DNA from: Candidatus Wolfebacteria bacterium
Lineage (GTDB): Bacteria; Patescibacteriota; Minisyncoccia; Phycocordibacterales; NVSU01
NCBI GenBank assembly: GCA_002401345.1
Contig: NVSU01000004.1
Coordinates: forward strand, 628-51,107
Length of the DNA: 50,480 nt
Reading direction: 5' to 3'
Part shown: in pieces, positions 2,065-15,785 of the stretch
Layout of the letters: every line of letters begins with the position of its first letter
Position numbering within the stretch: position 1 is the stretch's first letter
Notes under the pieces: generated by a model
The model's database searches: none
What the model was told of the DNA's origin: nothing
Seen by the model: the letters and a program-made list of their open reading frames with translations, nothing else
Program-made: the position numbers and the translations under genes

Positions 2065-2191
2065 GATCCTGTAGTCCCGACGTCCCTAAAATGTCGGGAG
2101 TCGGGAAGCCGATCGTAGCATCGGCTCTCAGTTTGGTTAGAGTGCATCGTTGACATCGATGAGGTCAGAGGTTCAAGTCCTCTCAGGATCA
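2065..2191 (+). tRNA. tRNA-Val(GAC) interrupted by a 52-nt insertion (2075-2126) between G10 and C11
   Basis: Acceptor GATCCTG/CAGGATC. D-stem G|CTC/GAGT. Anticodon arm CATCG-TTGACAT-CGATG. T arm AGAGG-TTCAAGT-CCTCT. No encoded CCA. Confidence 0.85.
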
Positions 2192-4152: not shown

Positions 4153-4348
4153 ATTCTGTGTATTTTAAAGTATTATTTGTTTCAAAAAACTCTATTTATT
4201 CATACAGATAATACTATTCTATATACACACTGTCAAGAATTATCTGTATACGGGAACATAGGAAAACCTATTTTAGGATGTATATATTTTTGAATTATAA
4301 ACCTCTTTTCTTTTGAATAAAGCCTTATATTTTGCTATCATTGAACAC

Positions 4349-7138
4349 ATGAACGATGATAATAAAGCGGACGATCCCAAAAAAGAAACTACATCTAAGT
4401 TCACAGATAAATTCTTAAAACCCTATGATTCCAAGGAAACTGAGGATCGTATATACAAACTCTGGGAGGAGAGTGGCTTTTTTAATCCTGATACCCTTAT
4501 AAAGGAGAATATTATCGATGCTGAGGCTGAGCCCTTCTCTATCGTACTTCCACCACCTAACGTTACGGGAACACTTCACACTGGACATGCTGCAATGCTC
4601 GCAATAGAAGATATAATGGTTCGATTTAATCGAATGAGAGGAAAAAAGGCATTATGGATCCCTGGAACAGACCATGCTGCAATTGCGACTCAATCACTCG
4701 TAGAAAAGCAACTCGCTAAAAAGAAGATACGGAGGCAAGACATAGGTCGTGAGGAATTTCTGAAACACGTTGATGCATTTGCCAGCGAATCACATGACAC
4801 GATCGTAAATCAGATTCGAAAAATGGGTGCGTCTATAGATTGGTCTCGCGAAGCATTTACACTTGATAATACTCGTGAAAAAGCTGTTCGTACTGCATTT
4901 AAAAGAATGTATGATGATGGATTGATTTATCGAGGATATAGAATTGTAAACTGGGATCCCAAGGGCCAAACAACTATTTCAGATGATGAGGTTCAACACG
5001 AGGACAGAAAGGCACACATGTATACCTTTAAATATTCTAAAGACTTCCCTATCTCAATTGCGACCACACGACCCGAAACAAAAGTTGGTGACACTGCTGT
5101 GGCAGTTCATCCTGATGATGACCGATATAAAAAATATATTGGTAACACCTATGAACTCGAATTTGCAGGTGTTCCCCTTTCAATACAAATTGTAGGAGAT
5201 GATAAAGTTGATCCAGAATTTGGAACTGGAGCAGTAGGAGTAACTCCTGCTCATAGTATGACCGACTGGGAAATAGCTCAGCGACATGACCTTCCAATGA
5301 AACAAGTGATCAATGAGTATGCAAAGATGATGGTAGATGCGCCAGAGCTCAAGGATAAGAAAACTACTGAGGCGAGGGAGATCATTGTGAAATGGCTCAC
5401 TGATGAGGAACTTCTCGAACATACAGAAGAAGTAGATCAAAGTATTTCTGTGGCTGAGCGTACAAATGGAATTATTGAGCCAATACCTAAATTACAATGG
5501 TTTATAGACGTACATAAAGAATTTACTCTCGCTAATTCACATATAGATGGAATAAAATCTGGTCAAAAGACATCACTAAAGGAGCTTATGCTTACTGTTG
5601 TTAAAAATGATCAAATCAAGATCATTCCCGAAAGATTTGAAAAAACATATTTTCATTGGATAGAAAATCTGCGTGACTGGAATATCTCGCGACAAATCTG
5701 GTATGGCCACAGAGTTCCTGTATGGTATGACAAGGATGATGCTATTCATCTTCAAGAGGAACATAACATTATTTTCATACGTCATGGACAAAGTGAAACT
5801 AATGCGAGTGGGATTATTGCAGGAAATACCGACACACCATTAACAGATAAGGGGCGAGCACAAGCACAAGATGAAGTTAAAAGCTTAAAGGAACGTAACA
5901 TTACGAAAATTATCTCCTCTGATCTAAGTCGATCAAAAGAAACCGCTGAGATTATAGGGCGTGAACTCGGCATTAAAGTTGAGTCATGGTGTGAATTGCA
6001 CGAAGTTGATGCAGGAGATATTCAAGGTACATTTAAGGATCCTGAAAATCATTTTCTACAAAGGGCACAAGATGCACACACAGGTGAAACATTAGAACAA
6101 ATTGAATATCGTGCGCGATTAATTATTGAGAAACTAAAATCTCTCAATGAAACTGGAAATGTACTTGTCGTCGGTCATGATGCATTTATTGCAATGATAT
6201 TTGGCGTGTGGAACAATGTTCCCAAAGAACGACTTATGGACCATATAAATAGCTGGAAGAGCTTGGACAATGCAAAAGGATTGGATGTTCAAATCTTAAC
6301 TGATCCCCAGGGAGAAGATTTAACACAAGACCCTGACACACTTGATACATGGTTCTCTTCTGGACTATGGACATTTTCAACACTCGGATGGCCTTCTCAA
6401 ACTGATGACCTCAAGACATATCACCCAACGAACGTACTGGAAACAGGACATGATTTGCTATTTTTCTGGATTGCACGAATGATTCTTATGACCACATATC
6501 TTCTGGGTGATATCCCCTTTCGAACAGTATACTTCCACGGACTTATTTTAGATAAAGATGGAAAGAAGATGAGTAAGTCTCGACCGGAGACTGCCATTGA
6601 TCCACTCATTGCAATAGAAAAATTTGGTGCTGACGCACTTCGTATGGCTATGATTGTTGGAGTGGGCCCAGGAAGCAGTAACACCCTCTCCGATGAGAAA
6701 ATTAAGGCGTATAAAAAATTTGCAAATAAACTTTGGAATGCAACACGATATGTACTTGAGAGTATAGGGGATTTTGATACGGAACGCACAGTCACACTTA
6801 CAAAGAAGCACGCGTCGTATATAGACGAATTACATGCGCTCGTAAATGAAATAACTAATGAAATGGAAGAATACAAATATTACCTCGTAGCAGAAAAACT
6901 CTATCACTATTTCTGGCATACGTTTGCAGATGTTATTATAGAAGAGAGCAAAGACCTACTTACACATGGTACTGAGGAGGAAAAACTGTCTGCTCACTAT
7001 ACACTTTGGACAATTCTGACCACACTTCTAAAACTACTTCATCCTTTTATGCCGTATGTCACAGAAGAAATTTGGGGAGCACTTCCGCATAACAAAACTC
7101 ATTTATTAATGGTCGAAAAATGGCCAATTCAAAAATAG
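4349..7138 (+). CDS. valS: Valine--tRNA ligase with an inserted histidine-phosphatase domain
   Basis: PPPNVTGTLHTGH, WNISRQIWYGH, DTWFSS and KMSKS motifs, plus an RHG-domain insertion. Start moved to ATG 4349, 7 nt after TG-c-TATCAT. Confidence 0.96.
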   Translation: MNDDNKADDPKKETTSKFTDKFLKPYDSKETEDRIYKLWEESGFFNPDTLIKENIIDAEAEPFSIVLPPPNVTGTLHTGHAAMLAIEDIMVRFNRMRGKKALWIPGTDHAAIATQSLVEKQLAKKKIRRQDIGREEFLKHVDAFASESHDTIVNQIRKMGASIDWSREAFTLDNTREKAVRTAFKRMYDDGLIYRGYRIVNWDPKGQTTISDDEVQHEDRKAHMYTFKYSKDFPISIATTRPETKVGDTAVAVHPDDDRYKKYIGNTYELEFAGVPLSIQIVGDDKVDPEFGTGAVGVTPAHSMTDWEIAQRHDLPMKQVINEYAKMMVDAPELKDKKTTEAREIIVKWLTDEELLEHTEEVDQSISVAERTNGIIEPIPKLQWFIDVHKEFTLANSHIDGIKSGQKTSLKELMLTVVKNDQIKIIPERFEKTYFHWIENLRDWNISRQIWYGHRVPVWYDKDDAIHLQEEHNIIFIRHGQSETNASGIIAGNTDTPLTDKGRAQAQDEVKSLKERNITKIISSDLSRSKETAEIIGRELGIKVESWCELHEVDAGDIQGTFKDPENHFLQRAQDAHTGETLEQIEYRARLIIEKLKSLNETGNVLVVGHDAFIAMIFGVWNNVPKERLMDHINSWKSLDNAKGLDVQILTDPQGEDLTQDPDTLDTWFSSGLWTFSTLGWPSQTDDLKTYHPTNVLETGHDLLFFWIARMILMTTYLLGDIPFRTVYFHGLILDKDGKKMSKSRPETAIDPLIAIEKFGADALRMAMIVGVGPGSSNTLSDEKIKAYKKFANKLWNATRYVLESIGDFDTERTVTLTKKHASYIDELHALVNEITNEMEEYKYYLVAEKLYHYFWHTFADVIIEESKDLLTHGTEEEKLSAHYTLWTILTTLLKLLHPFMPYVTEEIWGALPHNKTHLLMVEKWPIQK

Positions 7139-7148
7139 AAATAATATA

Positions 7149-7835
7149 ATGACAACAGCACAAATCATAATTGCACTCATCGGAGGACTTATTCCCGCAC
7201 TGTTATGGCTCTGGTTCTGGTTACGTGAAGACAAGGAGAAGCCTGAACCGAAGGGACTTCTTTTGATAACATTCTTACTCGGTATGGCAGTCGTGGGTAT
7301 CGTACTTCCACTAGAAAGACTAGCCGATACACTTATACCGAATGCGACAGGTACACTTGTAGCATGGGCCTCAATAGAAGAACTTGCTAAATTTGCTGCA
7401 GCCGCCGTTATAGCACTTAGAACCAAATATGCAGATGAACCAGTAGATTTTCCAATATACTTGATGACTGCTGCTCTTGGTTTTGCAGCGCTTGAAAATG
7501 GACTCTTTCTCTTAAACCCAGCAGTGGTAAATGATGCTGCAGTGAGTTTTTTGACTGGTGACTTACGATTTCTCGGAGCAACCTTACTACATGCTGTTGC
7601 AAGTGCACTTATAGGTATATCAATAGGTCTTTCCTTCTATAAAGGCTGGTTCGCAAAAAAAGCATATGTTATTTTTGGAATAGTGGCCGCAATCGTCTTG
7701 CACAGTTTGTTTAATTTTTTTATAATGAGAGGAGGAGACAATTTTTTCAGTGTGTTTAGTTTCATCTGGGTTGTCTCAATCATAATAATATTTATTTTTG
7801 AAAAACTAAGACGAATGAGTCTCGTAACTGCATAA
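7149..7835 (+). CDS. PrsW-family intramembrane glutamic protease
   Basis: IEELAK, GFAALEN, LLHA and LHSLFN motifs. Multi-TM. Confidence 0.85.
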   Translation: MTTAQIIIALIGGLIPALLWLWFWLREDKEKPEPKGLLLITFLLGMAVVGIVLPLERLADTLIPNATGTLVAWASIEELAKFAAAAVIALRTKYADEPVDFPIYLMTAALGFAALENGLFLLNPAVVNDAAVSFLTGDLRFLGATLLHAVASALIGISIGLSFYKGWFAKKAYVIFGIVAAIVLHSLFNFFIMRGGDNFFSVFSFIWVVSIIIIFIFEKLRRMSLVTA

Positions 7836-7866
7836 TTGTGGTTGCGTGATTTATTATTTAAACTAT

Positions 7867-8331
7867 ATGCTAAAAAAACGATCATTTTTTGAAAGACTTA
7901 CAGGAAGTGTAAAATTGGAAGACGACAATGAACTAGAGCTCGACGAACAAGAAATAGATTTGGATAATGTATTAGAGGAGAATGATAACTGGGTTGAAGA
8001 GGTTGGTGAATTATCTGTGGATGTATTTGAAACTCCAACTGATATTGTGGTGAAAGCAATGGTTGCAGGTGTACGACCAGATGAACTTACTATAAATATT
8101 TCCCGCGACTCATTAACGGTTGAGGGACATAGAGAGGAAAGTAGCACCGTAAGCGAAGATAATTATTATTCACGTGAACTTTACTGGGGTTCATTTTCAA
8201 GAACAATAGCACTTCCCCACGAAGTTGAACCAGATCAAGCAGTTGCAACTGAGAAACATGGATTGCTTATTCTAAAGATTCCTCGAATCGACAAAGAAAA
8301 GAAAGCTACGGTAAAAATTAAATCTATATAA
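7867..8331 (+). CDS. Hsp20/alpha-crystallin small heat-shock protein
   Basis: VDVFET...AGV...ELYWGSFSRTIALP...GLLILKIP. Confidence 0.92.
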   Translation: MLKKRSFFERLTGSVKLEDDNELELDEQEIDLDNVLEENDNWVEEVGELSVDVFETPTDIVVKAMVAGVRPDELTINISRDSLTVEGHREESSTVSEDNYYSRELYWGSFSRTIALPHEVEPDQAVATEKHGLLILKIPRIDKEKKATVKIKSI

Positions 8332-8340
8332 TAGACAACA

Positions 8341-8369
8341 AAAAAACACCCCTAGTGGGGTGTTTTTTT
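8341..8369. terminator. Bidirectional terminator
   Basis: AAAAAACACCCC-tagt-GGGGTGTTTTTT. Confidence 0.8.
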
Positions 8370-8389
8370 GTTGAATGAGTGTGTGTAGA

Positions 8390-9253
8390 TTATTCTTCGT
8401 CGTCCTCATCATCATTTTCGTCTTCGTCATCTGACTCTTCTTCATCATCATTTTCGTCTTCGTCATGTGACTCTTCTTCATCATCATTTTCGTCATCTGA
8501 TTCACTTGCTGCTCGTACTGCATCTCTAAATGCATCTTTTGCATCTTTAAGTGCGTCTTTAAAGTCATCTACTGCAGCTGCAATAGTATCTTTATGATCA
8601 CTTATTGCATCACGAACTGACTCGCTTATGTTTTTGATTACATCTTTACTTTCCTTCAACTCTGCCTTAGCAGCCTCCATACTTGCCTTAAGTTCGGCTC
8701 GTATCTCTGAAGGATTATCTCCAGCTTCACAACTCGCTTGAGCTGTATCTATAGCTGCTACTACTGATCCTCTAAACTCTGCAAGTGCAGCATCAACATC
8801 TACATTTCGTGATTCAAGCACTAGATCAACTTCTGCTCGAAATGAGTCATTTGCAGCATCAATGATTGCTCGTCGTGTTTCAAATGCATCCCTTACTGCA
8901 AGCTTGAACTCATCAAGTGCAGCTAATTTAACAGGATCATCTCCCAATTGCTCTTCTAGATGAGCAAATCGATCATTTCGTTTTGTATCAGCTTCTGTTC
9001 GCTTCTCTTCAATTCTTGAAGCTCGATCAGCTTTACGATCAGATAATTTTCGCGCTTGCTCTGTTCGACGTGCAGCAATTTTTTCAGTTTGAGCATCTAG
9101 TCGACTGTTAACTTTATCTGATAATTGTGTGATCCGCTCACATGTATTTCGACCATGTGAACTTCCTTGTGCGTATGCCGTAAAAGGCACCATACTCACC
9201 ACTATTGCTAATCCAATAATTAATGAGATTCCTTTATTCATAGTTATATTCAT
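8390..9253 (-). CDS. Secreted coiled-coil protein with an acidic repeat tail
   Basis: Signal peptide ending AYA, two Cys, Ala/charged helical body, C-terminal D/E repeats. Confidence 0.8.
   Translation of the reverse strand: MNITMNKGISLIIGLAIVVSMVPFTAYAQGSSHGRNTCERITQLSDKVNSRLDAQTEKIAARRTEQARKLSDRKADRASRIEEKRTEADTKRNDRFAHLEEQLGDDPVKLAALDEFKLAVRDAFETRRAIIDAANDSFRAEVDLVLESRNVDVDAALAEFRGSVVAAIDTAQASCEAGDNPSEIRAELKASMEAAKAELKESKDVIKNISESVRDAISDHKDTIAAAVDDFKDALKDAKDAFRDAVRAASESDDENDDEEESHDEDENDDEEESDDEDENDDEDDEE
8407..8497. repeat. 36-bp tandem repeat encoding (D/H)DEDENDDEEES
   Basis: About 2.5 copies of TCATCATTTTCGTCTTCGTCAT(C/G)TGACTCTTCTTCA. Confidence 0.8.
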
Positions 9254-9422
9254 AAAAATTAATAAATTATTATTAGTAATAAAAAATTATAATATTAAGA
9301 GGGACGACTATTATTCCTCTATATATACTGACGATACATAGTTATTTATATTACACGACATTTGTGTATATACAACAATAATATCATAGAGTCAAAATAT
9401 TAAAATTATACCTTTTGACTTG

Positions 9423-9497
9423 TGCTCGGGGGCGGACTTGAACCGCCGACCCTTCGCTCTTCAGGCGAATGCTCTAAACCAACTGAGCTACCCGAGC
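9423..9497 (-). tRNA. tRNA-Phe(GAA)
   Basis: Acceptor GCTCGGG/CCCGAGC. Anticodon arm TTCGC-CTGAAGA-GCGAA. T arm GGCGG-TTCAAGT-CCGCC. Confidence 0.95.
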
Positions 9498-9509
9498 AGA
9501 AACTTTTGT

Positions 9510-9803
9510 TTACTCATCTTTGTTCAAAATATCATTGATGATACTTCCATCTGTAACCGACTCACTAAATTCAGTTAACTGAGTTACCCCAGAGACAGTT
9601 TGCTCAAAAATTGAGCGTGCTTGCTCTAAAAATGGACGAATGAAAAGGAATCCTACTAATGCAGCTCCAATAATAATAAGCCATTTAATAACCTTAAAAA
9701 AACGAGATCGCTTTTCAGCACTTCTCATCTGCTTTAAGATCTTATTATTCTCCTTTGAAAGCGCGATAGAAACTTCTAATAACTTTTTATCATTCGGATC
9801 CAT
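9510..9803 (-). CDS. Small single-TM protein
   Basis: 97 aa with ENNKILKQMR followed by one TM helix. TGa-TATATT lies 6 nt before the ATG. Confidence 0.75.
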   Translation of the reverse strand: MDPNDKKLLEVSIALSKENNKILKQMRSAEKRSRFFKVIKWLIIIGAALVGFLFIRPFLEQARSIFEQTVSGVTQLTEFSESVTDGSIINDILNKDE

Positions 9804-9846
9804 GAGAAAAATATATCATAAATATGCTCCTTATGCTACTGAAATA

Positions 9847-9875
9847 TTTGTGTCCCCGGACTGAGTCGAACAGTC
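9847..9875. repeat. 29-bp direct repeat of the tRNA-Arg 3' end (att-like), partner of 11012-11040
   Basis: TTTGTGTCCCCGGACTGAGTCGAACAGTC is identical at both sites. Confidence 0.9.
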
Positions 9876-9899
9876 TAGCTCGATCAAGTTTGATATAAA

Positions 9900-9923
9900 A
9901 AAGCACGGATTACTCCGTGCTTT
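9900..9923 (-). terminator. Intrinsic terminator
   Basis: AAAGCACGGA-ttac-TCCGTGCTTT with an upstream A-run on +. Confidence 0.75.
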
Positions 9924-9936
9924 AAAGCTATTATTT

Positions 9937-10917
9937 CTATTTTCTTGGTTGAATTGGCATTACATCACTATATGCAATGTCATATTTCTCAAGAAGTTCG
10001 TCAAGTTCATTCATAGACTTTGAACCAAAATTTCTCATTCCTAAATATTCATGTCTAGGAAAAGACGCAATATGACCTAAAGAAATATTTCCAAGGCTTC
10101 GAATTCCATAATAGCGCAAGATGACTGCCCGAATACAATTACTTAATCTGACAGACACATCAAGTTCCAATAATGATTTAGAAAGAACTTTTATCTTGTC
10201 ATCTCCAAGACCTTGCTTCGATTTATCAGTCTCTTCCTTTGATTGATATTGAAGCAATTTTTGTTCAAGTTTATTAATAATTTGTCCTTGCAGTCTAACT
10301 TTTTCACAATACTCTTTATACTGTAACATTCGTTCATCGAATCTTCTCATTTTATATATTACATACCTTAAACCTTTCTGAAATATTTGACGAACTCGTT
10401 CACTCGTAAGATCAAATTTTTCAGAAATCTCGTCAAAAGTATTATTCTCAAATAAGACTAAATACAAGACTTCATCTTGTCTTGAAAAACGAGACTGTTC
10501 ATTAAGAAAAACTTTTTTGAATAGATCTTGAAAAAATTCAAGTTTTTCAATTCTGTCATGAAATCCTGTATACCATGTAAGTTTAAATTTCATATATTCC
10601 TCTGTCTCATTTCTCACAAATAAAAGTTTTGAACCCCTTTTATTTGATAAACGAAGATGAGGAAATTTATCTTTGAGGCAAAGATTTCTAATCGTTGACA
10701 TGCTAATGCCAGTTAGTACATACACCTCATCAATCAACAATAACGGTTCATCTAATGACACTTTTAATTTCTTCTCAAGTTTATCTTTGTCAATAAATAA
10801 TTTATTTCCTTCATATACAGGTTTAGGTAAAACTCCTTTTTGTATATATCTTGAAATAGAACTCTTATTATGTTGGATAAGAGTTGCAACTTCATCAAGT
10901 GAGAGCATATTGTTCAT
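9937..10917 (-). CDS. Putative transcription regulator: two excisionase-like HTH domains, sigma70 region 4 and an RNAP alpha-CTD-like domain
   Basis: MLSLDEVATL...ISRYIQKG; LLIDEVYVLTGISMSTIRNL; TFDEISEKFDLTSERVRQI; ELDVSVRLSNC...RNFGSKSMNEL. Confidence 0.75.
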   Translation of the reverse strand: MNNMLSLDEVATLIQHNKSSISRYIQKGVLPKPVYEGNKLFIDKDKLEKKLKVSLDEPLLLIDEVYVLTGISMSTIRNLCLKDKFPHLRLSNKRGSKLLFVRNETEEYMKFKLTWYTGFHDRIEKLEFFQDLFKKVFLNEQSRFSRQDEVLYLVLFENNTFDEISEKFDLTSERVRQIFQKGLRYVIYKMRRFDERMLQYKEYCEKVRLQGQIINKLEQKLLQYQSKEETDKSKQGLGDDKIKVLSKSLLELDVSVRLSNCIRAVILRYYGIRSLGNISLGHIASFPRHEYLGMRNFGSKSMNELDELLEKYDIAYSDVMPIQPRK

Positions 10918-11015
10918 TTCCTTTTATTTTAAAGTTCACTATAGTAATCTGTATTCTACACAATATAATACCATCATTATCATATAGAATCAAATATAAA
11001 ATTTTCTATTTTTTG

Positions 11016-11119
11016 TGTCCCCGGACTGAGTCGAACAGTCAGCTGCTCCTTAGGAGGGAGCCGTTTTATCCATTAAATCCCGACGTTACAGTCGGGACCC
11101 CGACCTTGCGTCGGGGCTA
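11016..11119 (-). pseudogene. Disrupted tRNA-Arg(CCT) with a 39-nt hairpin insertion after G10 and no adjacent 5' acceptor strand
   Basis: TAG|CCCCGACgcaagGTCGGGG TCCCGACtgtaacGTCGGGA|TTTAATGGATAAAAC-G-GCTCC-CTCCTAA-GGAGC-agct-GACTG-TTCGACT-CAGTC-CGGGGAC-A. Confidence 0.75.
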
Positions 11120-11124
11120 TACTA

Positions 11125-11212
11125 TGCCCTCATCAGGAATCGCCTCTCCCCGACTCAATATTTCATATTTCGCTGGACTGCGTTTTGTATTCAATCATTT
11201 CACCACGAGGGC
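11125..11212 (-). pseudogene. Degenerate tRNA-like sequence
   Basis: GCCCTCG...TGAGGGC-A acceptor-like pairing. The last 18 nt are identical to the 3' end of the tRNA-Arg at 11407. The anticodon arm is unrecognisable. Confidence 0.45.
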
Positions 11213-11359
11213 ACTTCTTATTTCTTAGATTATTTCACTCCCAAAGAAATAAAGTCGCATTCTTGAACAAAACGGGAGCCGCTGGTCGAAATCCACAATT
11301 TATATATTCACTATGTTCATTATAAATTGGGACCTTCGGTTCTCATCTAGGAGTCACTG

Positions 11360-11404
11360 TAACGTAAAAAACTCAGGCAAAACATGCTTGAGCTTTTTAC
11401 GTTA
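11360..11404 (-). terminator. Long hairpin/terminator after tRNA-Arg
   Basis: TAACGTAAAAA-a-CTCAGGCA...TGCTTGAG-c-TTTTTACGTTA. Confidence 0.6.
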
Positions 11405-11406
11405 TA

Positions 11407-11478
11407 TGCCCTCATCAGGAATCGAACCTAAATCTAGTCCTTAGGAGGGACTTGTTTTATCCATTAAACTATGAGGGC
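11407..11478 (-). tRNA. tRNA-Arg(CCT), intact
   Basis: Acceptor GCCCTCA/TGAGGGC. D-stem GTTT/AAAC. Anticodon arm AGTCC-CTCCTAA-GGACT. T arm TTAGG-TTCGATT-CCTGA. Confidence 0.93.
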
Positions 11479-11488
11479 TTCGGGGACA

Positions 11489-11530
11489 ATTATACAAAAG
11501 AGCACCTTTTACGATGCCCTTTTGTATAAT
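11489..11530 (-). terminator. Hairpin terminator after the glutaredoxin gene
   Basis: ATTATACAAAAG(A)GCA(C)C...G(A)TGC(C)CTTTTGTATAAT inverted repeat. Confidence 0.65.
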
Positions 11531-11555
11531 AAACTATTTTTCGAATTCTGCACTA

Positions 11556-11789
11556 TTACAATTCAAGTAATTGCATTAGTTTGTCTTTGTTGAATCCTAC
11601 TATAATTTCATTTTCTATATCTATAACGGGCACACCCATTTGTCCACTTTTCTCAATCATTTCTGTCCTTTTTTCTGCGTCAGTTGAAACATCGAATTCT
11701 GTGTATTCCACGTCATTAGCTTTGAAAAATTCTTTTGCAATAGTGCAATATCCACACGTAGGTGTGCTATAAATTAATACTGATTTCAT
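11556..11789 (-). CDS. Glutaredoxin/NrdH-like redoxin
   Basis: YSTPTCGYC, GVPVI and IVGF motifs. Confidence 0.92.
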   Translation of the reverse strand: MKSVLIYSTPTCGYCTIAKEFFKANDVEYTEFDVSTDAEKRTEMIEKSGQMGVPVIDIENEIIVGFNKDKLMQLLEL

Positions 11790-11928
11790 ACTATTCTCAT
11801 CAAATATTGGTAACTAAATACTGGAATATTCGATATAACTACTAATAATGTAGTCCAGTATAACATAAATAGAAAACCAATCTAAATGTATTGTGACAAA
11901 GCACATATGAAGCTATAATAAATGCACT

Positions 11929-13287
11929 ATGGCATTAGAACTCTATAATACACTTACAAGAACTAAAGAAAAATTTATGCCTCTTACTCCTCATCATGTA
12001 GGGCTTTATACATGTGGTCCCACAGTATATAACTATCCCCACATAGGTAATTATCGTGCGTATGTGTTTGCAGATCTGCTCAAGCGTCATTTAGAATACT
12101 CAGGGTATGAGGTAACACATGTAATGAATCTTACTGATGTTGATGATAAGACTATCAAAGTATCTCAGGAAGAAGGAAAAAGTTTAAAAGAGTTCACTGA
12201 ATTTTATTCTAAGGAATTTTTTAGGGATCTTGAATCTCTTCATATAGAAAAAGCGGACGAATATCCGCGTGCAACGGATCATATTAATGAGATGGTGGAA
12301 CTTATCAGTACCCTCTTAGATAAAGGATATGCATATAAGAGTGATGATGGAAGTATCTACTTTAGTGTGGAGAAATATAAAGACTATGGTCAATTGTCAC
12401 ACATCGACACAACTGAACTCAAGGAAGGAGCCTCAGGTAGAATAATTGCTGATGAGTATTCAAAAGATAGTGTAAATGATTTTGCACTTTGGAAAGCGTG
12501 GGATGAAAGTGATGGAGATGTATTCTGGGATACAAAGATCGGAAAAGGTCGTCCGGGGTGGCATATTGAATGTTCCGCCATGAGTACAAAATATTTAGGA
12601 AAAAACTTTGACATACATACTGGAGGAGTTGATTTAATATTTCCTCACCATGAGAACGAAATAGCTCAGTCCACATGTTGTACAAATAGTTCATTTGTAA
12701 ATTATTGGCTTCATAATGAGTGGGTATTGGTTGATGGTAAGAAAATGTCAAAATCATTGAATAATTTTTATCGACTTTCAGATATAGAGAAAAAAGGAAT
12801 TTCGGTGGTCGCCTATAGATACTGGCTACTTATGGCACAGTACAGAACGGCTATTAATTTCACATGGGAGGCCCTAGAGGCGGCTGAGAGTGCATTAAAG
12901 CACCTAATGAGCCTTTATATACAGCTTAAAGATGAAAAAGGGGTTATACAAGAAACATACAAAAAAGAGTTTATCCAGTACATGGATAATGACCTCGATA
13001 CTCCTCGAGCATTAACTGTGCTATGGGAAGTAATAAAAGACAGCACCCTCTCGGACGGAGATAAACGTGCGACTATAATAGACTTTGATAGAGTATTTGG
13101 TCTTGGCTTTAAAGATTTAAAACTGGAACCACTCCCTGATAACATAATTCAATTAGTAGATCAGAGAGAAACTGCTCGTAAAGAACACAACTGGGATGAA
13201 GCTGATGTGCTTCGAACTGCAATTCAAAAAGAGGGGTATGAAGTTAAAGACACAGACCATGGACCACTCATCACTCCAATTCTCTAA
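11929..13287 (+). CDS. cysS: Cysteine--tRNA ligase
   Basis: CGPTVY..HIGN, GRPGWHIECS, DIHTGG.DL.FPHHENE and KMSKS motifs. Confidence 0.98.
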   Translation: MALELYNTLTRTKEKFMPLTPHHVGLYTCGPTVYNYPHIGNYRAYVFADLLKRHLEYSGYEVTHVMNLTDVDDKTIKVSQEEGKSLKEFTEFYSKEFFRDLESLHIEKADEYPRATDHINEMVELISTLLDKGYAYKSDDGSIYFSVEKYKDYGQLSHIDTTELKEGASGRIIADEYSKDSVNDFALWKAWDESDGDVFWDTKIGKGRPGWHIECSAMSTKYLGKNFDIHTGGVDLIFPHHENEIAQSTCCTNSSFVNYWLHNEWVLVDGKKMSKSLNNFYRLSDIEKKGISVVAYRYWLLMAQYRTAINFTWEALEAAESALKHLMSLYIQLKDEKGVIQETYKKEFIQYMDNDLDTPRALTVLWEVIKDSTLSDGDKRATIIDFDRVFGLGFKDLKLEPLPDNIIQLVDQRETARKEHNWDEADVLRTAIQKEGYEVKDTDHGPLITPIL

Positions 13288-13306
13288 ATAAAATTAAGAT
13301 TTAAAA

Positions 13307-13336
13307 AAAGCCTTACCAATTATTTGGTAAGGCTTT
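13307..13336. terminator. Bidirectional terminator
   Basis: AAAGCCTTACCAA-ttat-TTGGTAAGGCTTT. Confidence 0.8.
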
Positions 13337-13344
13337 GTGTATTC

Positions 13345-14031
13345 TTATTGTGTAACACGTCTATGAACAGAAATCTTAAGTAAAGGAATGATGTCTTGAT
13401 CGGAATACTCTAACACTAATTCCTTATTTGAAACATTCTTATATGCTTCTATGATCAAGTTATTTTCCTCCTTAATCCTCTTGCGTGACACGCGAATCAG
13501 TTCATTATACAGTTCTGCAATATCATACTGTGTCCTCAGTGTATGTTTATCAGCTGTATGTTGTTTAATTCTTGCATCGATATTTGCTTTCTTTTTACGT
13601 TCCCTAAATTCAGACAGTTCATCTGCTATCTCAATAGTGTCGCGTTGCAACATCGAAATAGCTTCATTTTTTTTACCGCCACCAATTTTTCTTGCTTTTA
13701 CAGAATCAAGTTTATGTACCAATTCACTCATTGTGGAATTTAAACGCATTTCCTCTTCAGTAAATGAATTATATTTAGCGGAGATCTGTATTCCATTAGT
13801 TCTAATGTGCGTCTCTTGCTTCATTATATTTATACTTAATACCTCAGACCTCTCAATTAGTTTCTTGATAAAGGAATTATCAGTATCAGCGATAATGTAG
13901 ACAAAGGTCACACTATCACTTGTATATGTCGCAATGGTGTCACCACTATTGGCATATGCATTACTAGTAAGTAATTGAAACAATACAATTACTACAATAG
14001 ATACACTTCGAATATGTCCATAACTGTTCAT
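13345..14031 (-). CDS. Orphan secreted coiled-coil protein
   Basis: Signal peptide ending AYA, helical charged body. Promoter TTGACT-17-CATTAT at 14072-14100. Confidence 0.7.
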   Translation of the reverse strand: MNSYGHIRSVSIVVIVLFQLLTSNAYANSGDTIATYTSDSVTFVYIIADTDNSFIKKLIERSEVLSINIMKQETHIRTNGIQISAKYNSFTEEEMRLNSTMSELVHKLDSVKARKIGGGKKNEAISMLQRDTIEIADELSEFRERKKKANIDARIKQHTADKHTLRTQYDIAELYNELIRVSRKRIKEENNLIIEAYKNVSNKELVLEYSDQDIIPLLKISVHRRVTQ

Positions 14032-14164
14032 GTGTTCAATTTTTAAGGTTCATATTTAAACTATTTGTCTAATAATGACATATATAAGACATACAGTCAA
14101 TCATCGACATATTAACTATAACATGGTAATATATAAAAAAGTTAGTTCCACGAAAACTGAATAT

Positions 14165-14659
14165 ATGAAAAAGTTTCTAAGTCTTTTATTGTTTATAGGT
14201 ATCTTTTTGAGTACTTCAAGAGATGATCACGCTATTAGCATGAGCACATCTATTGATGATCCTAAAAATCCATTTAAAAATATGGACGAGCTTATTGAGG
14301 CAATCGCATGCAAGGAATCCAGACACAATGATAATGCAATGGGTGATCTCACAGAATTTGATAGCATCTTGAATGGCATTGATACTGCATATGGATATCT
14401 GCAAATTACCAATGATGTGATTATTGACGTAAATCAAACACTTGGCACCAATTATCGTTCAATAGATGCAAAAGGCAATCGCGAACTCTCCATAAAGCTT
14501 TTTTACGTATACATAGAGAGATATGCAACTTTTGTCAGGCTTAAAAGAATAGCTACTCAAGAGGATATTGCTCGCATATGGAACGGAGGACCAAATGGAT
14601 TTAAAAAAGAAACAACAATAGTATATTGGGAGGATGTAAAATCTTGTCCCAATAAATAA
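14165..14659 (+). CDS. Secreted lysozyme-like protein (transglycosylase/destabilase-like)
   Basis: Signal peptide MKKFLSLLLF, then AIACKES, YGYLQI and IARIWNGGPNG. Promoter TCGACA-17-TAATAT at 14104-14132. Confidence 0.75.
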   Translation: MKKFLSLLLFIGIFLSTSRDDHAISMSTSIDDPKNPFKNMDELIEAIACKESRHNDNAMGDLTEFDSILNGIDTAYGYLQITNDVIIDVNQTLGTNYRSIDAKGNRELSIKLFYVYIERYATFVRLKRIATQEDIARIWNGGPNGFKKETTIVYWEDVKSCPNK

Positions 14660-14680
14660 ACCGCCCTTATGGCGGTTTTT
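14658..14680. terminator. Terminator
   Basis: AAACCGCC-cttat-GGCGGTTT followed by a T-run. Confidence 0.75.
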
Positions 14681-14723
14681 TTTATATAGATACTGTGAAG
14701 CTCGAATTAGTATACAATCTCGT

Positions 14724-15785
14724 CTATACTCCTTCCTTTTTTAATTCTTCAATGAGTTCTTTAGATTTATTAGTCAATTTTTTAGGTAATGAAATATTTA
14801 TTTTCACTAATAGATCACCTCTCTGACCGCTGCCCTTTGGAACACCCTTCCCTGCTACTCGAAGTACTTCATGTGCGGAAACTCCTACTGGAATTGGAAG
14901 CTCAATGTCTCCATCTAATGTAGCTATTGTGTACGTGGTACCTAATAATGCATCCGAAAGTTTAATATTCAAATCCATAGTTAAATTTAGTCCATTTCTT
15001 TTAAATGTTGCATGGGGTGCCACATTTATTTTAATATAGAGATCACCAGATGTCCCTTTAGACACAGCTTCTCCAAAACCTAACAACCGTATCATCTCGC
15101 CATTTTGAATACCAGCAGGAATAGCCACATTTATTTCGTGTTGATCCTTTAGAATACCTGCTCCCTTACAGGAAACACATTTTTCATGTGGGACCTTTCC
15201 TGATCCAACACAAGTCTCACATATACGAACACTTGAGAATGTCCCCAGCATCGATTGCTTGGTTTCGTGAACCTGACCCTGTCCATTACATCTCGTACAT
15301 GTCTCCATTTTAGTGCCTGGTTTTCCTCCTGTATTCTCACATATCTTACATTCAGACATTTTATTCACTAAAATTTTTCTTTCAATACCGAATATAGATT
15401 CTTCAAATGAAATATGTAATTCAGTGGAAATATCCCTTCCGCGAGGTGCGCGTTGAGCACCTGCCATTCCACCCGTAAAAAATTGACTGAAGATATCATT
15501 TAAATTCCCAAAATCAAAACCTGCCTGTTGTGCCTGAGAAAAATCACTATACCCTGCACCACCGCCACCTGCACCAGAAAACACTCGCCCATATGAATCA
15601 TATTCTGAGCGTTTTCTTTCGTCAGAGAGCACTTGATATGCCTCATTTACTTCCTTAAATTTTGCTTCATTCCCACCTTTTTTATCTGGATGATATTTGT
15701 GGGCAAGCTTATGAAAGGCTTTCTTTATTTGATCTTTGGTAGATTCCTTTGAAACTCCAAGTATTTGGTAATAGTCTTTAGACAT
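14724..15785 (-). CDS. dnaJ: Chaperone DnaJ
   Basis: J domain with HPD, G/F region, four CxxCxGxG-like repeats. Confidence 0.97.
   Translation of the reverse strand: MSKDYYQILGVSKESTKDQIKKAFHKLAHKYHPDKKGGNEAKFKEVNEAYQVLSDERKRSEYDSYGRVFSGAGGGGAGYSDFSQAQQAGFDFGNLNDIFSQFFTGGMAGAQRAPRGRDISTELHISFEESIFGIERKILVNKMSECKICENTGGKPGTKMETCTRCNGQGQVHETKQSMLGTFSSVRICETCVGSGKVPHEKCVSCKGAGILKDQHEINVAIPAGIQNGEMIRLLGFGEAVSKGTSGDLYIKINVAPHATFKRNGLNLTMDLNIKLSDALLGTTYTIATLDGDIELPIPVGVSAHEVLRVAGKGVPKGSGQRGDLLVKINISLPKKLTNKSKELIEELKKEGV

Follow-up and report, generated by a model that had tools for sequence, protein, structure and literature searches.

A tandem double hairpin of 39 nt stands between a TAG and the remainder of a tRNA-Arg(CCT) gene in a Candidatus Wolfebacteria genome, and with moderate confidence we propose that this doublet is a short GC-rich DNA insert, scattered in Patescibacteria (CPR), which at tRNA genes marks a 5' piece displaced by small cassettes. 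The doublet is strongly biased to the junction between tRNA nucleotides 10 and 11, and its flanks in tRNA contexts are the two halves of one tRNA 5' end; copies at this junction almost always have an intact gene next to them, in some cases with a tiny GIY-YIG gene in between. We read the doublet as an insertion at the DNA level and not as an RNA intron. The window, by which we mean the whole stretch of 50,480 nt that was analysed, carries two such sites, one at tRNA-Arg(CCT) and one at tRNA-Val(GAC), and the genome to which it belongs (G000) comprises 897 kb in 24 contigs and is 92% complete. The tRNA calls are those of ARAGORN and Rfam.

The Arg site (Table 1) had been singled out in a first-pass annotation, which described tandem CCCGAC/GTCGGG hairpins between TAG and nt 11 of tRNA-Arg(CCT), and the hairpins are indeed found there, at 11116-11078, with CCCGAC and GTCGGG as the arms of both stems. 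Read along the minus strand, TAGTATAG (11124-11117) is followed by hairpin 1, hairpin 2 and then nt 11-73 of the tRNA (11077-11016), a body that scores 29.9 bits with Rfam and is thus barely above threshold. The pattern CCCGAC-N3-14-GTCGGG occurs three times in the window, all three at the Arg and Val tRNA sites, and not once in 100 shuffles. The same annotation took the Arg gene to be disrupted by the hairpins, a description that had to be revised. Because the 7 nt preceding the TAG do not pair with the 3' acceptor strand, this gene, which we call copy B, is not a tRNA interrupted by hairpins alone, and in silico deletion of the 39-nt insert yields no ARAGORN tRNA at the site. A 5' acceptor strand that fits copy B is located 400 nt upstream of its body, where GTCCCCGAAG (11487-11478) consists of this strand followed by AAG; we estimate the chance of such a complementary strand within 500 nt at ~0.005 or less. 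Removal of the whole 400-nt block gives an ARAGORN call of a canonical 73-nt tRNA-Arg(CCT) with a 7-bp acceptor stem. The final G of GTCCCCGAAG doubles as G1 of a second, intact tRNA-Arg(CCT), copy A, and copy B can therefore be regarded as a gene split after G10 by a block made up of copy A, a non-coding mini-element of ~280 nt, the 8-nt linker and the doublet. Presumably it is copy A that works as the Arg(CCT) gene; it lies ~290 nt upstream of the hairpin-bearing copy B, and the two agree at 48 of the 72 positions that align and are identical over nt 9-25 and in the anticodon loop. Copy B itself would be non-functional, that is, a dead resident gene.

Table 1. Positions, strands and particulars of the features at the Val and Arg sites of the window.
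Feature	Position	Strand	Particulars
tRNA-Val(GAC) with two-hairpin insert	2065..2191	+	rest of gene intact
25-nt repeat of copy B T arm and 3' end	9851..9875	-	bounds 1.1-kb segment with ORF 9937-10917
tRNA-Arg(CCT) copy B, nt 11-73	11016..11077	-	D-arm remainder, anticodon arm, T arm, 3' acceptor strand
Tandem double hairpin (flagged insert, 39 nt)	11078..11116	-	two independent hairpins in RNA fold
Hairpin 2 of doublet	11078-11097	-	7-bp stem, 6-nt loop
Hairpin 1 of doublet	11098-11116	-	7-bp stem, 5-nt loop
8-nt linker TAGTATAG	11117..11124	-	ends in TAG before doublet; original 3' flank of tRNA-Arg copy A
Non-coding mini-element at 3' end of copy A	11125..11406	-	ends in 17-nt repeat of copy A 3' end (11125-11141)
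tRNA-Arg(CCT) copy A, intact	11407..11478	-	ARAGORN; Rfam 67.7 bits
tRNA-Arg(CCT) copy B, nt 1-10 (GTCCCCGAAG)	11478..11487	-	5' acceptor strand fully complementary to copy B 3' strand

Several insertions are nested around the two Arg(CCT) genes of this region. A mini-element homologous to the one behind copy A, and of the same design, follows tRNA-Ile(TAT) on contig C20. Mini-elements of this kind (~280 nt) are found at the 3' ends of Arg-CCT copy A, Ile-TAT and, in part, Tyr; their terminus consists of GGGAGAGGC and a 17-nt copy of the cognate tRNA 3' end, and other sites in the genome are C20:8120-8520, C8:8545-8607 and C16:19389-19493. On the other side of copy B, the 1.1-kb segment at 9851-11040 has a single ORF (9937-10917, minus strand), with Pfam matches to HTH_17, Sigma70_r4 and the RNAP alpha-CTD, and resembles a small integrated element that lacks an integrase. 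A direct repeat of the tRNA 3' part bounds the inserted DNA in the case of the mini-element and of the 1.1-kb ORF segment, but not in that of the doublet. Contigs from four DNA runs, two of them perhaps from the source sample, cover the Arg and Val sites and include no variant without either insert; joints near 11196-11261 in those contigs derive from other mini-element copies. At gathering score, Rfam matched only tRNAs in the window and no intron or other family.

In tRNA-Val(GAC), nt 1-10 occupy 2065-2074, a 52-nt insert 2075-2126, and nt 11 onward starts at 2127, so that, as the first-pass annotation had noted, the Arg and Val inserts share one junction, both after G10, and differ in their loops. 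The Val insert folds as two self-contained hairpins with the acceptor stem kept in the fold, and its in silico deletion leaves a canonical 76-nt tRNA with a 7-bp acceptor stem and no sign of decay. This gene carries a variant of the doublet and is the sole clean bare insertion among the copies examined. No second Val(GAC) gene was found in the 897 kb of this 92% complete genome, in which tRNA-Val(UAC) and tRNA-Arg(UCU) are both encoded. By standard wobble, Val(UAC) and Arg(UCU) can read the codons concerned. The interrupted Val(GAC) and Arg(CCT) are thus dispensable isoacceptors, because Val(UAC) and Arg(UCU) are present and Arg(CCT) has copy A in addition, and Val(GAC) is perhaps non-functional.

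Nine double hairpins were found in the genome, counting the Val variant and one decayed copy, and TAG precedes each of them. Five of the nine lie at tRNA nt 10/11, namely those at Val, Arg, Lys, Thr and a Lys-like relic at a contig end; the Lys relic (contig C16) is 25 nt upstream of an intact tRNA-Lys(CTT), and the Thr relic (contig C13) 85 nt upstream of an intact tRNA-Thr(TGT). Of the remaining doublets, one lies in the RNase P RNA gene and three lie elsewhere. Nucleotides 8-10 of tRNAs account for just 15 of the 21,201 TAG sites of the genome, and the bare 6-mer arms stand at background level (331 observed, ~330 expected).

A single RNase P RNA gene was found (C23:2363-2992, minus strand, locus L001; Rfam 51.5 bits), and it has a 39-nt doublet in the 5' strand of helix P2, after ATAG, with P1 and a 7-bp P2 perfectly paired around it. 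We regard the doublet as inserted DNA, because in the relative G003 the 5' strand of P2 runs on without a break at the point where this genome has the doublet after ATAG. Single CCCGAC/GTCGGG hairpins lie inside the RNase P RNAs of three of five relatives (L169 in G031, L170 in G003 and L171 in G197), and the one in G031 aligns to a hairpin of the Rfam model that we take to be the P13/P14 region.

Partial duplicates accompany many other tRNA genes of the genome. Further 5' relics were seen for Asn (two), Glu, Cys (two), Ser (two), Ile-TAT and Leu-TAG, and GC-rich hairpins of other kinds interrupt several of these relics, among them a 16-nt perfect palindrome, a 14-nt palindrome and an ~80-nt hairpin with CCCGAT/ATCGGG arms. 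Repeats of tRNA 3' ends occur for Gly-TCC, Leu-TAG, Cys, Arg-GCG and Ser-GCT, and partial tRNA duplicates are spread over contigs C1, C6, C8, C12, C16 and C20. ARAGORN called no Met and no Asp tRNA in the genome; at C15:19332-19388 / C24:74991-75051 there are a 3' part of tRNA-Asp(GTC) without a recognisable 5' part and a tRNA-Met(CAT)-like gene whose 5' strand does not pair with its 3' acceptor strand. Contig C24 has a G+C content of 44.5%, against ~36% for the remaining contigs.

A CPR-wide search for the hairpins, as proposed in the first-pass annotation, established that the doublet extends far beyond this genome. Exact-stem copies were found in 12 of the 301 genomes sampled from the order, and these 12 represent many families, whereas the reversed control pattern gave none; in GTDB genomes the doublet was found in at least 121 stretches, almost all from MAGs that carry a Patescibacteria/CPR label. 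The matches listed comprise 144 unique copies, which include related genomes and are not independent events; for each, flanks of 300-1500 nt were examined, so that a second copy farther away would escape notice. The search pattern fixes the stem sequence, and the loops vary among the 144 listed copies. To the left of these copies, position -3 is A in 122, position -2 is G in 103 and A in 33 (136 together) and position -1 is C in 134, and to the right position +1 is A in 138; T at -4 (77 of 144) and G at -5 (48 of 144) are less frequent. Loop 1 begins with G in 138 and loop 2 ends with C in 136 of the 144 listed copies, and the two hairpin units look like mirror-image copies of each other, as in REP dimers.

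The tRNA copies among these have TAG as U8-A9-G10, and the earlier suggestion of targeting at a single structural coordinate holds in so far as the position is clearly non-random: five of nine doublets of this genome set against 15 of 21,201 TAG sites and, in the junction analysis described below, 24 of 143 listed copies set against none. Its more specific form, targeting of U8-A9-G10 as such, has to be qualified, since the A at -3 (122 of 144) and the G at -2 (103 of 144) of the listed copies are conserved also before non-tRNA copies; the motif thus belongs with the element or with its target, and not with U8-A9-G10 alone. Many non-tRNA copies are preceded by AAG or AA and not by TAG. About 80% of the listed doublets are not at tRNAs, and most of the listed copies are intergenic without duplication of the flanks. 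An abundance of the hairpin after any TAG, without tRNA or position enrichment, had been named as the outcome that would refute the earlier suggestion; the enrichment is present, even though most listed copies lie off tRNAs. Sense-strand doublets were found upstream of rplD, rplF (twice), rpsG, rpsL, rplS, rpoA, rpoB and dnaJ, and because many copies precede housekeeping genes on the same strand, the doublet must also exist apart from nuclease cassettes.

We joined 10 nt of the left flank to 6 nt of the right flank of each copy and sought the resulting 16-mer downstream with at most 2 mismatches. In 24 of the 143 listed copies the joined 16-mer was met again downstream, without a break, at the 5' end of an intact tRNA, whereas control 16-mers gave 0 of 143. 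These 24 copies involve the tRNAs for Met, Gly, Val, Arg, Pro, Lys, Ala, Thr, Phe, Asn and others, and in these copies the interrupted piece is a short relic upstream of the intact cognate tRNA. The spacers between relic and tRNA fall into two classes, of ~8-65 nt and 263-280 nt, and among the copies compared neither flanks nor spacers share any sequence. One further locus (L116), the only listed non-tRNA copy with the relic-type layout, has a ~37-nt tandem duplication, and its doublet is present only in the left copy of the duplication, after GTAG.

The loci of this type are also linked to GIY-YIG genes. Among 74 ORFs on the same strand downstream of listed hairpins, five encode GIY-YIG proteins of ~85 aa, which consist of the catalytic domain alone, and all five, which belong to other genomes, have tRNA-type flanks; of the other 69, ~30 have a Pfam match, mostly to housekeeping families, and the rest matched nothing. 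At locus L034, a direct repeat of 24 nt, made up of 13 nt of upstream flank and nt 1-11 of the tRNA, surrounds the hairpins and a GIY-YIG gene and is followed by an intact tRNA-Phe. In the genome studied here, GIY-YIG genes are found directly upstream of tRNA-Glu and tRNA-Asn, and the 5' relics at both loci are split in the D-arm by GC-rich hairpins of other families. Near the two sites of the window no GIY-YIG gene was found, either on contig C3 or among the 12 ORFs scanned at 4313-15785. The window encodes, at 4313-7138 on the plus strand, a class I aminoacyl-tRNA synthetase of 941 aa, in which a His_Phos_1 domain (residues 486-641, E 3e-37) lies between the catalytic and anticodon-binding parts. 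Further small GIY-YIG genes lie between protein genes at C4:16026-16199, C11:21982-22194 and C10:4305-4466; inverted repeats of 11-12 nt surround two of them, as though these genes lay in a hairpin loop, and the C10 copy is flanked by direct repeats.

For the mechanism of mobility and the order of events we infer the following scenario. The doublet would be inserted after (T)AG, a motif whose residues in a tRNA gene are U8-A9-G10. A small cassette, in some cases with its ~85-aa GIY-YIG nuclease gene in place, would invade the front of a tRNA gene and supply a replacement 5' end, so that an intact tRNA persists, and the displaced 5' piece (nt 1-10, hairpins and nt 11 to ~18) would stay upstream, where it is or becomes plugged by the hairpins. 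The nuclease genes may decay later and leave short spacers, and bare insertions would survive only in dispensable genes, with tRNA-Val(GAC) as an example of the bare state. At Arg copy B, the resident gene would have been split after G10 by the 400-nt block carrying the intact copy A, and the mini-element would have entered the 3' end of copy A later than the block.

Several observations count against this scenario. The two sites of the window are without a nearby GIY-YIG gene, the relics at the tRNA loci of this genome that do have one contain hairpins of other families, ~80% of the copies lie off tRNAs, and no enzyme has so far been tied to the doublet. The layout at Arg is, moreover, reversed relative to the common one: in the latter a relic is followed by a spacer and then by the intact gene, whereas at Arg the order begins with the intact gene and the hairpins directly adjoin a full-length 3' body, an arrangement that only one other listed locus (L021) resembles.

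Because GIY-YIG genes are not nearby, because the Arg layout is reversed and because about four-fifths of the doublets are off tRNAs, a REP-like element with a TAG target has to be taken as a serious rival, though on balance we think it unlikely. The doublet would in that case be an autonomous REP/REPIN-like palindrome that enters single-stranded DNA 3' of (T)AG and is moved in trans by a Y1 transposase (RAYT or IS200/IS605-type) independently of GIY-YIG, the tRNA relics being harmless, well-matching targets. REP, BIME and REPIN elements with RAYT transposases have been described (PMC3733652; PMC2817692; PMC3116915), and the doublet is like them, as far as these descriptions go, in that they are short GC-rich palindromes, often dimers, usually extragenic and in operons. 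REPs also bear at one end a conserved short tag that ends in TAG; the corresponding positions of the 144 listed doublets are T in 77, A in 122 and G in 103 and, in the tRNA copies, coincide with U8-A9-G10. Passages of PMC3733652 mention both GTAG-tagged REPs and REPs that land in small palindromes. The conserved flanks of the 144 listed copies, their mirrored units and the intergenic location of most copies without duplicated flanks all agree with such an element, and a Y1_Tnp gene is present in this genome. The RAYT-like genes of this genome and of four of five hairpin-positive relatives are, however, flanked by other palindromes and never by CCCGAC arms, and the relative G197 has doublets and no Y1_Tnp match. 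Nor does the distribution resemble that of REPs, which are lineage-specific: the doublet has a low copy number (nine in this genome and at most six exact copies per genome among the 301), yet its stems, in a search that fixed their sequence, are identical across many families and so across a radiation. Finally, the doublets share one tRNA coordinate, and we found no such share reported for REPs; at least 17% of the doublets lie at tRNA junctions, as against 14 of 412 TAGYTYA sites in tRNAs genome-wide.

Simpler forms of this explanation were considered and set aside. All seven Y1_Tnp genes of this genome and the four relatives are flanked by palindromes unrelated to the doublet, and a RAYT link was rejected on these grounds. 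Simple targeting by GTAG, as in tagged REPs, was downgraded on account of the weakly conserved G at -5 and the many non-tRNA copies preceded by AAG or AA, and a target motif alone, such as TAGYTYA, fails to account for the tRNA share, given that tRNAs hold only 14 of the 412 such sites. One of the Y1 transposases, a RAYT-like protein of 213 aa encoded at C12:1262-1903 (L041), has a 25-nt palindrome on both sides of its gene; further copies of this palindrome lie within the ORF itself and on the downstream side of the mini-element at tRNA-Ile(TAT).

A more doubtful explanation, to which we assign a low probability, is that selection maintains the doublet as a functional module, either in RNA or as a binding site for a protein. 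It could, for instance, signal processing, stabilization or termination ahead of tRNA and ribosomal-protein genes, and its sequence would be conserved because a conserved CPR protein reads it. Stems that are the same across many CPR lineages (in the pattern-fixed search) while the loops vary would suit such a module, as would the sense-strand copies upstream of ribosomal-protein and other housekeeping genes, the doublet in the RNase P RNA of this genome and the single hairpins in those of three of five relatives. It leaves unexplained, however, why a duplicated tRNA 5' end should be split exactly at nt 10/11, and it sits poorly with the patchy presence of the doublet (12 of 301 genomes), with flanks and spacers that have no sequence in common and with the lack of any Rfam family at gathering score.

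Similarly improbable is a reading in which the doublet forms part of the transcripts of working RNAs, which would either accommodate it as an additional arm of two hairpins or have it cut out of the RNA; RNase P RNA would then work despite its P2 insert, and Val(GAC) would be live. Of all the readings, removal from the RNA has the least support. The position-specific removal mechanism that the first-pass annotation had offered as an alternative to targeting finds no support in relics that lie beside intact genes, and the in silico deletion that it had proposed restores a complete tRNA at Val alone, and neither at Arg nor in any of the 144 canonical copies listed; the tRNA-splicing endonuclease EndA and the ligase RtcB were not found in this genome (no match to PF01974 or PF01139, at 92% completeness). 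That the hairpins act as an intervening sequence which the tRNA transcript either loses or tolerates, leaving the hairpin-bearing Val and Arg genes both functional, is very improbable. In its favour, Val(GAC) is otherwise canonical, with a 7-bp acceptor stem around two self-contained hairpins and no second gene found, and in the one RNase P RNA gene found a perfect P2 of 7 bp still forms around the insert. Against it, Arg copy B has no adjacent 5' acceptor strand, the junctions in the folds lie beside two complete hairpins with no bulge-helix-bulge, no Rfam intron family was matched at gathering score, and the codons can be read through wobble by Val(UAC) and Arg(UCU).

The proposed insertion of DNA, with tRNA 5' pieces displaced by small cassettes, can be compared with known systems. 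A full-text search of openly accessible articles brought up papers on REP/RAYT and on T4 SegB and found neither hairpin doublets at tRNA nt 10/11 nor a description of GIY-YIG cassettes in CPR tRNA genes, and none of the known kinds compared here combines the invariant doublet, the nt 10/11 coordinate and the rebuilt gene. Integrase-type insertion into tRNA genes leaves attL/attR partial duplicates, classically of the 3' part. Both there and here the inserted DNA rebuilds the tRNA gene and a partial duplicate remains, but in the case of the doublet it is nt 1 to ~18 that are duplicated and a hairpin splits the relic; among the ORFs scanned near doublet sites there was no integrase gene. In archaea, non-canonical tRNA introns and split tRNAs exist, and they recall the doublet by an insert in the D-arm region and by a tRNA 5' piece that is encoded apart from the body. 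They differ from it in that the host here is bacterial, the folds lack a bulge-helix-bulge, EndA and RtcB were not found in this 92% complete genome and most copies are shortened relics. Rickettsia palindromic elements, of ~100-150 bp and mostly in protein-coding genes, are likewise palindromes tolerated within functional genes of reduced genomes; to our knowledge, no preference for a tRNA coordinate exists among them. These elements are mentioned in PMC3733652. The closest parallel on the side of the nuclease is SegB of phage T4, described as a free-standing GIY-YIG homing endonuclease in a tRNA gene region (PMC2330249), which as characterized there shares with the CPR genes a small GIY-YIG gene beside tRNA genes and the behaviour of selfish DNA. 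The CPR ORF differs in encoding, with ~85 aa, a putative nuclease of the catalytic domain only and in having cellular CPR genomes as hosts, and the CPR cassette differs in duplicating the tRNA 5' end and leaving behind a hairpin-plugged relic.

If the reading that we prefer is true, CPR tRNA genes are a routine target of tiny selfish units that enter them at one structural coordinate and leave hairpin-plugged relics while the gene is rebuilt alongside. This would account for many of the "broken" or missing tRNAs in CPR genome annotations, and the 39-nt doublet with its invariant stems would serve as a sequence marker for such events across the radiation. It would also point to the ~85-aa GIY-YIG protein, or to another enzyme, with specificity for a structure or for tRNA genes. 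The doublet in RNase P RNA and the otherwise perfect tRNA-Val(GAC) offer direct test cases of whether essential structured RNAs tolerate or shed such inserts. Were the RNA-level reading true instead, it would mean a new processing route or a two-piece or expanded tRNA, and Val(GAC) would be a live bacterial tRNA with an intervening sequence in its D-stem.
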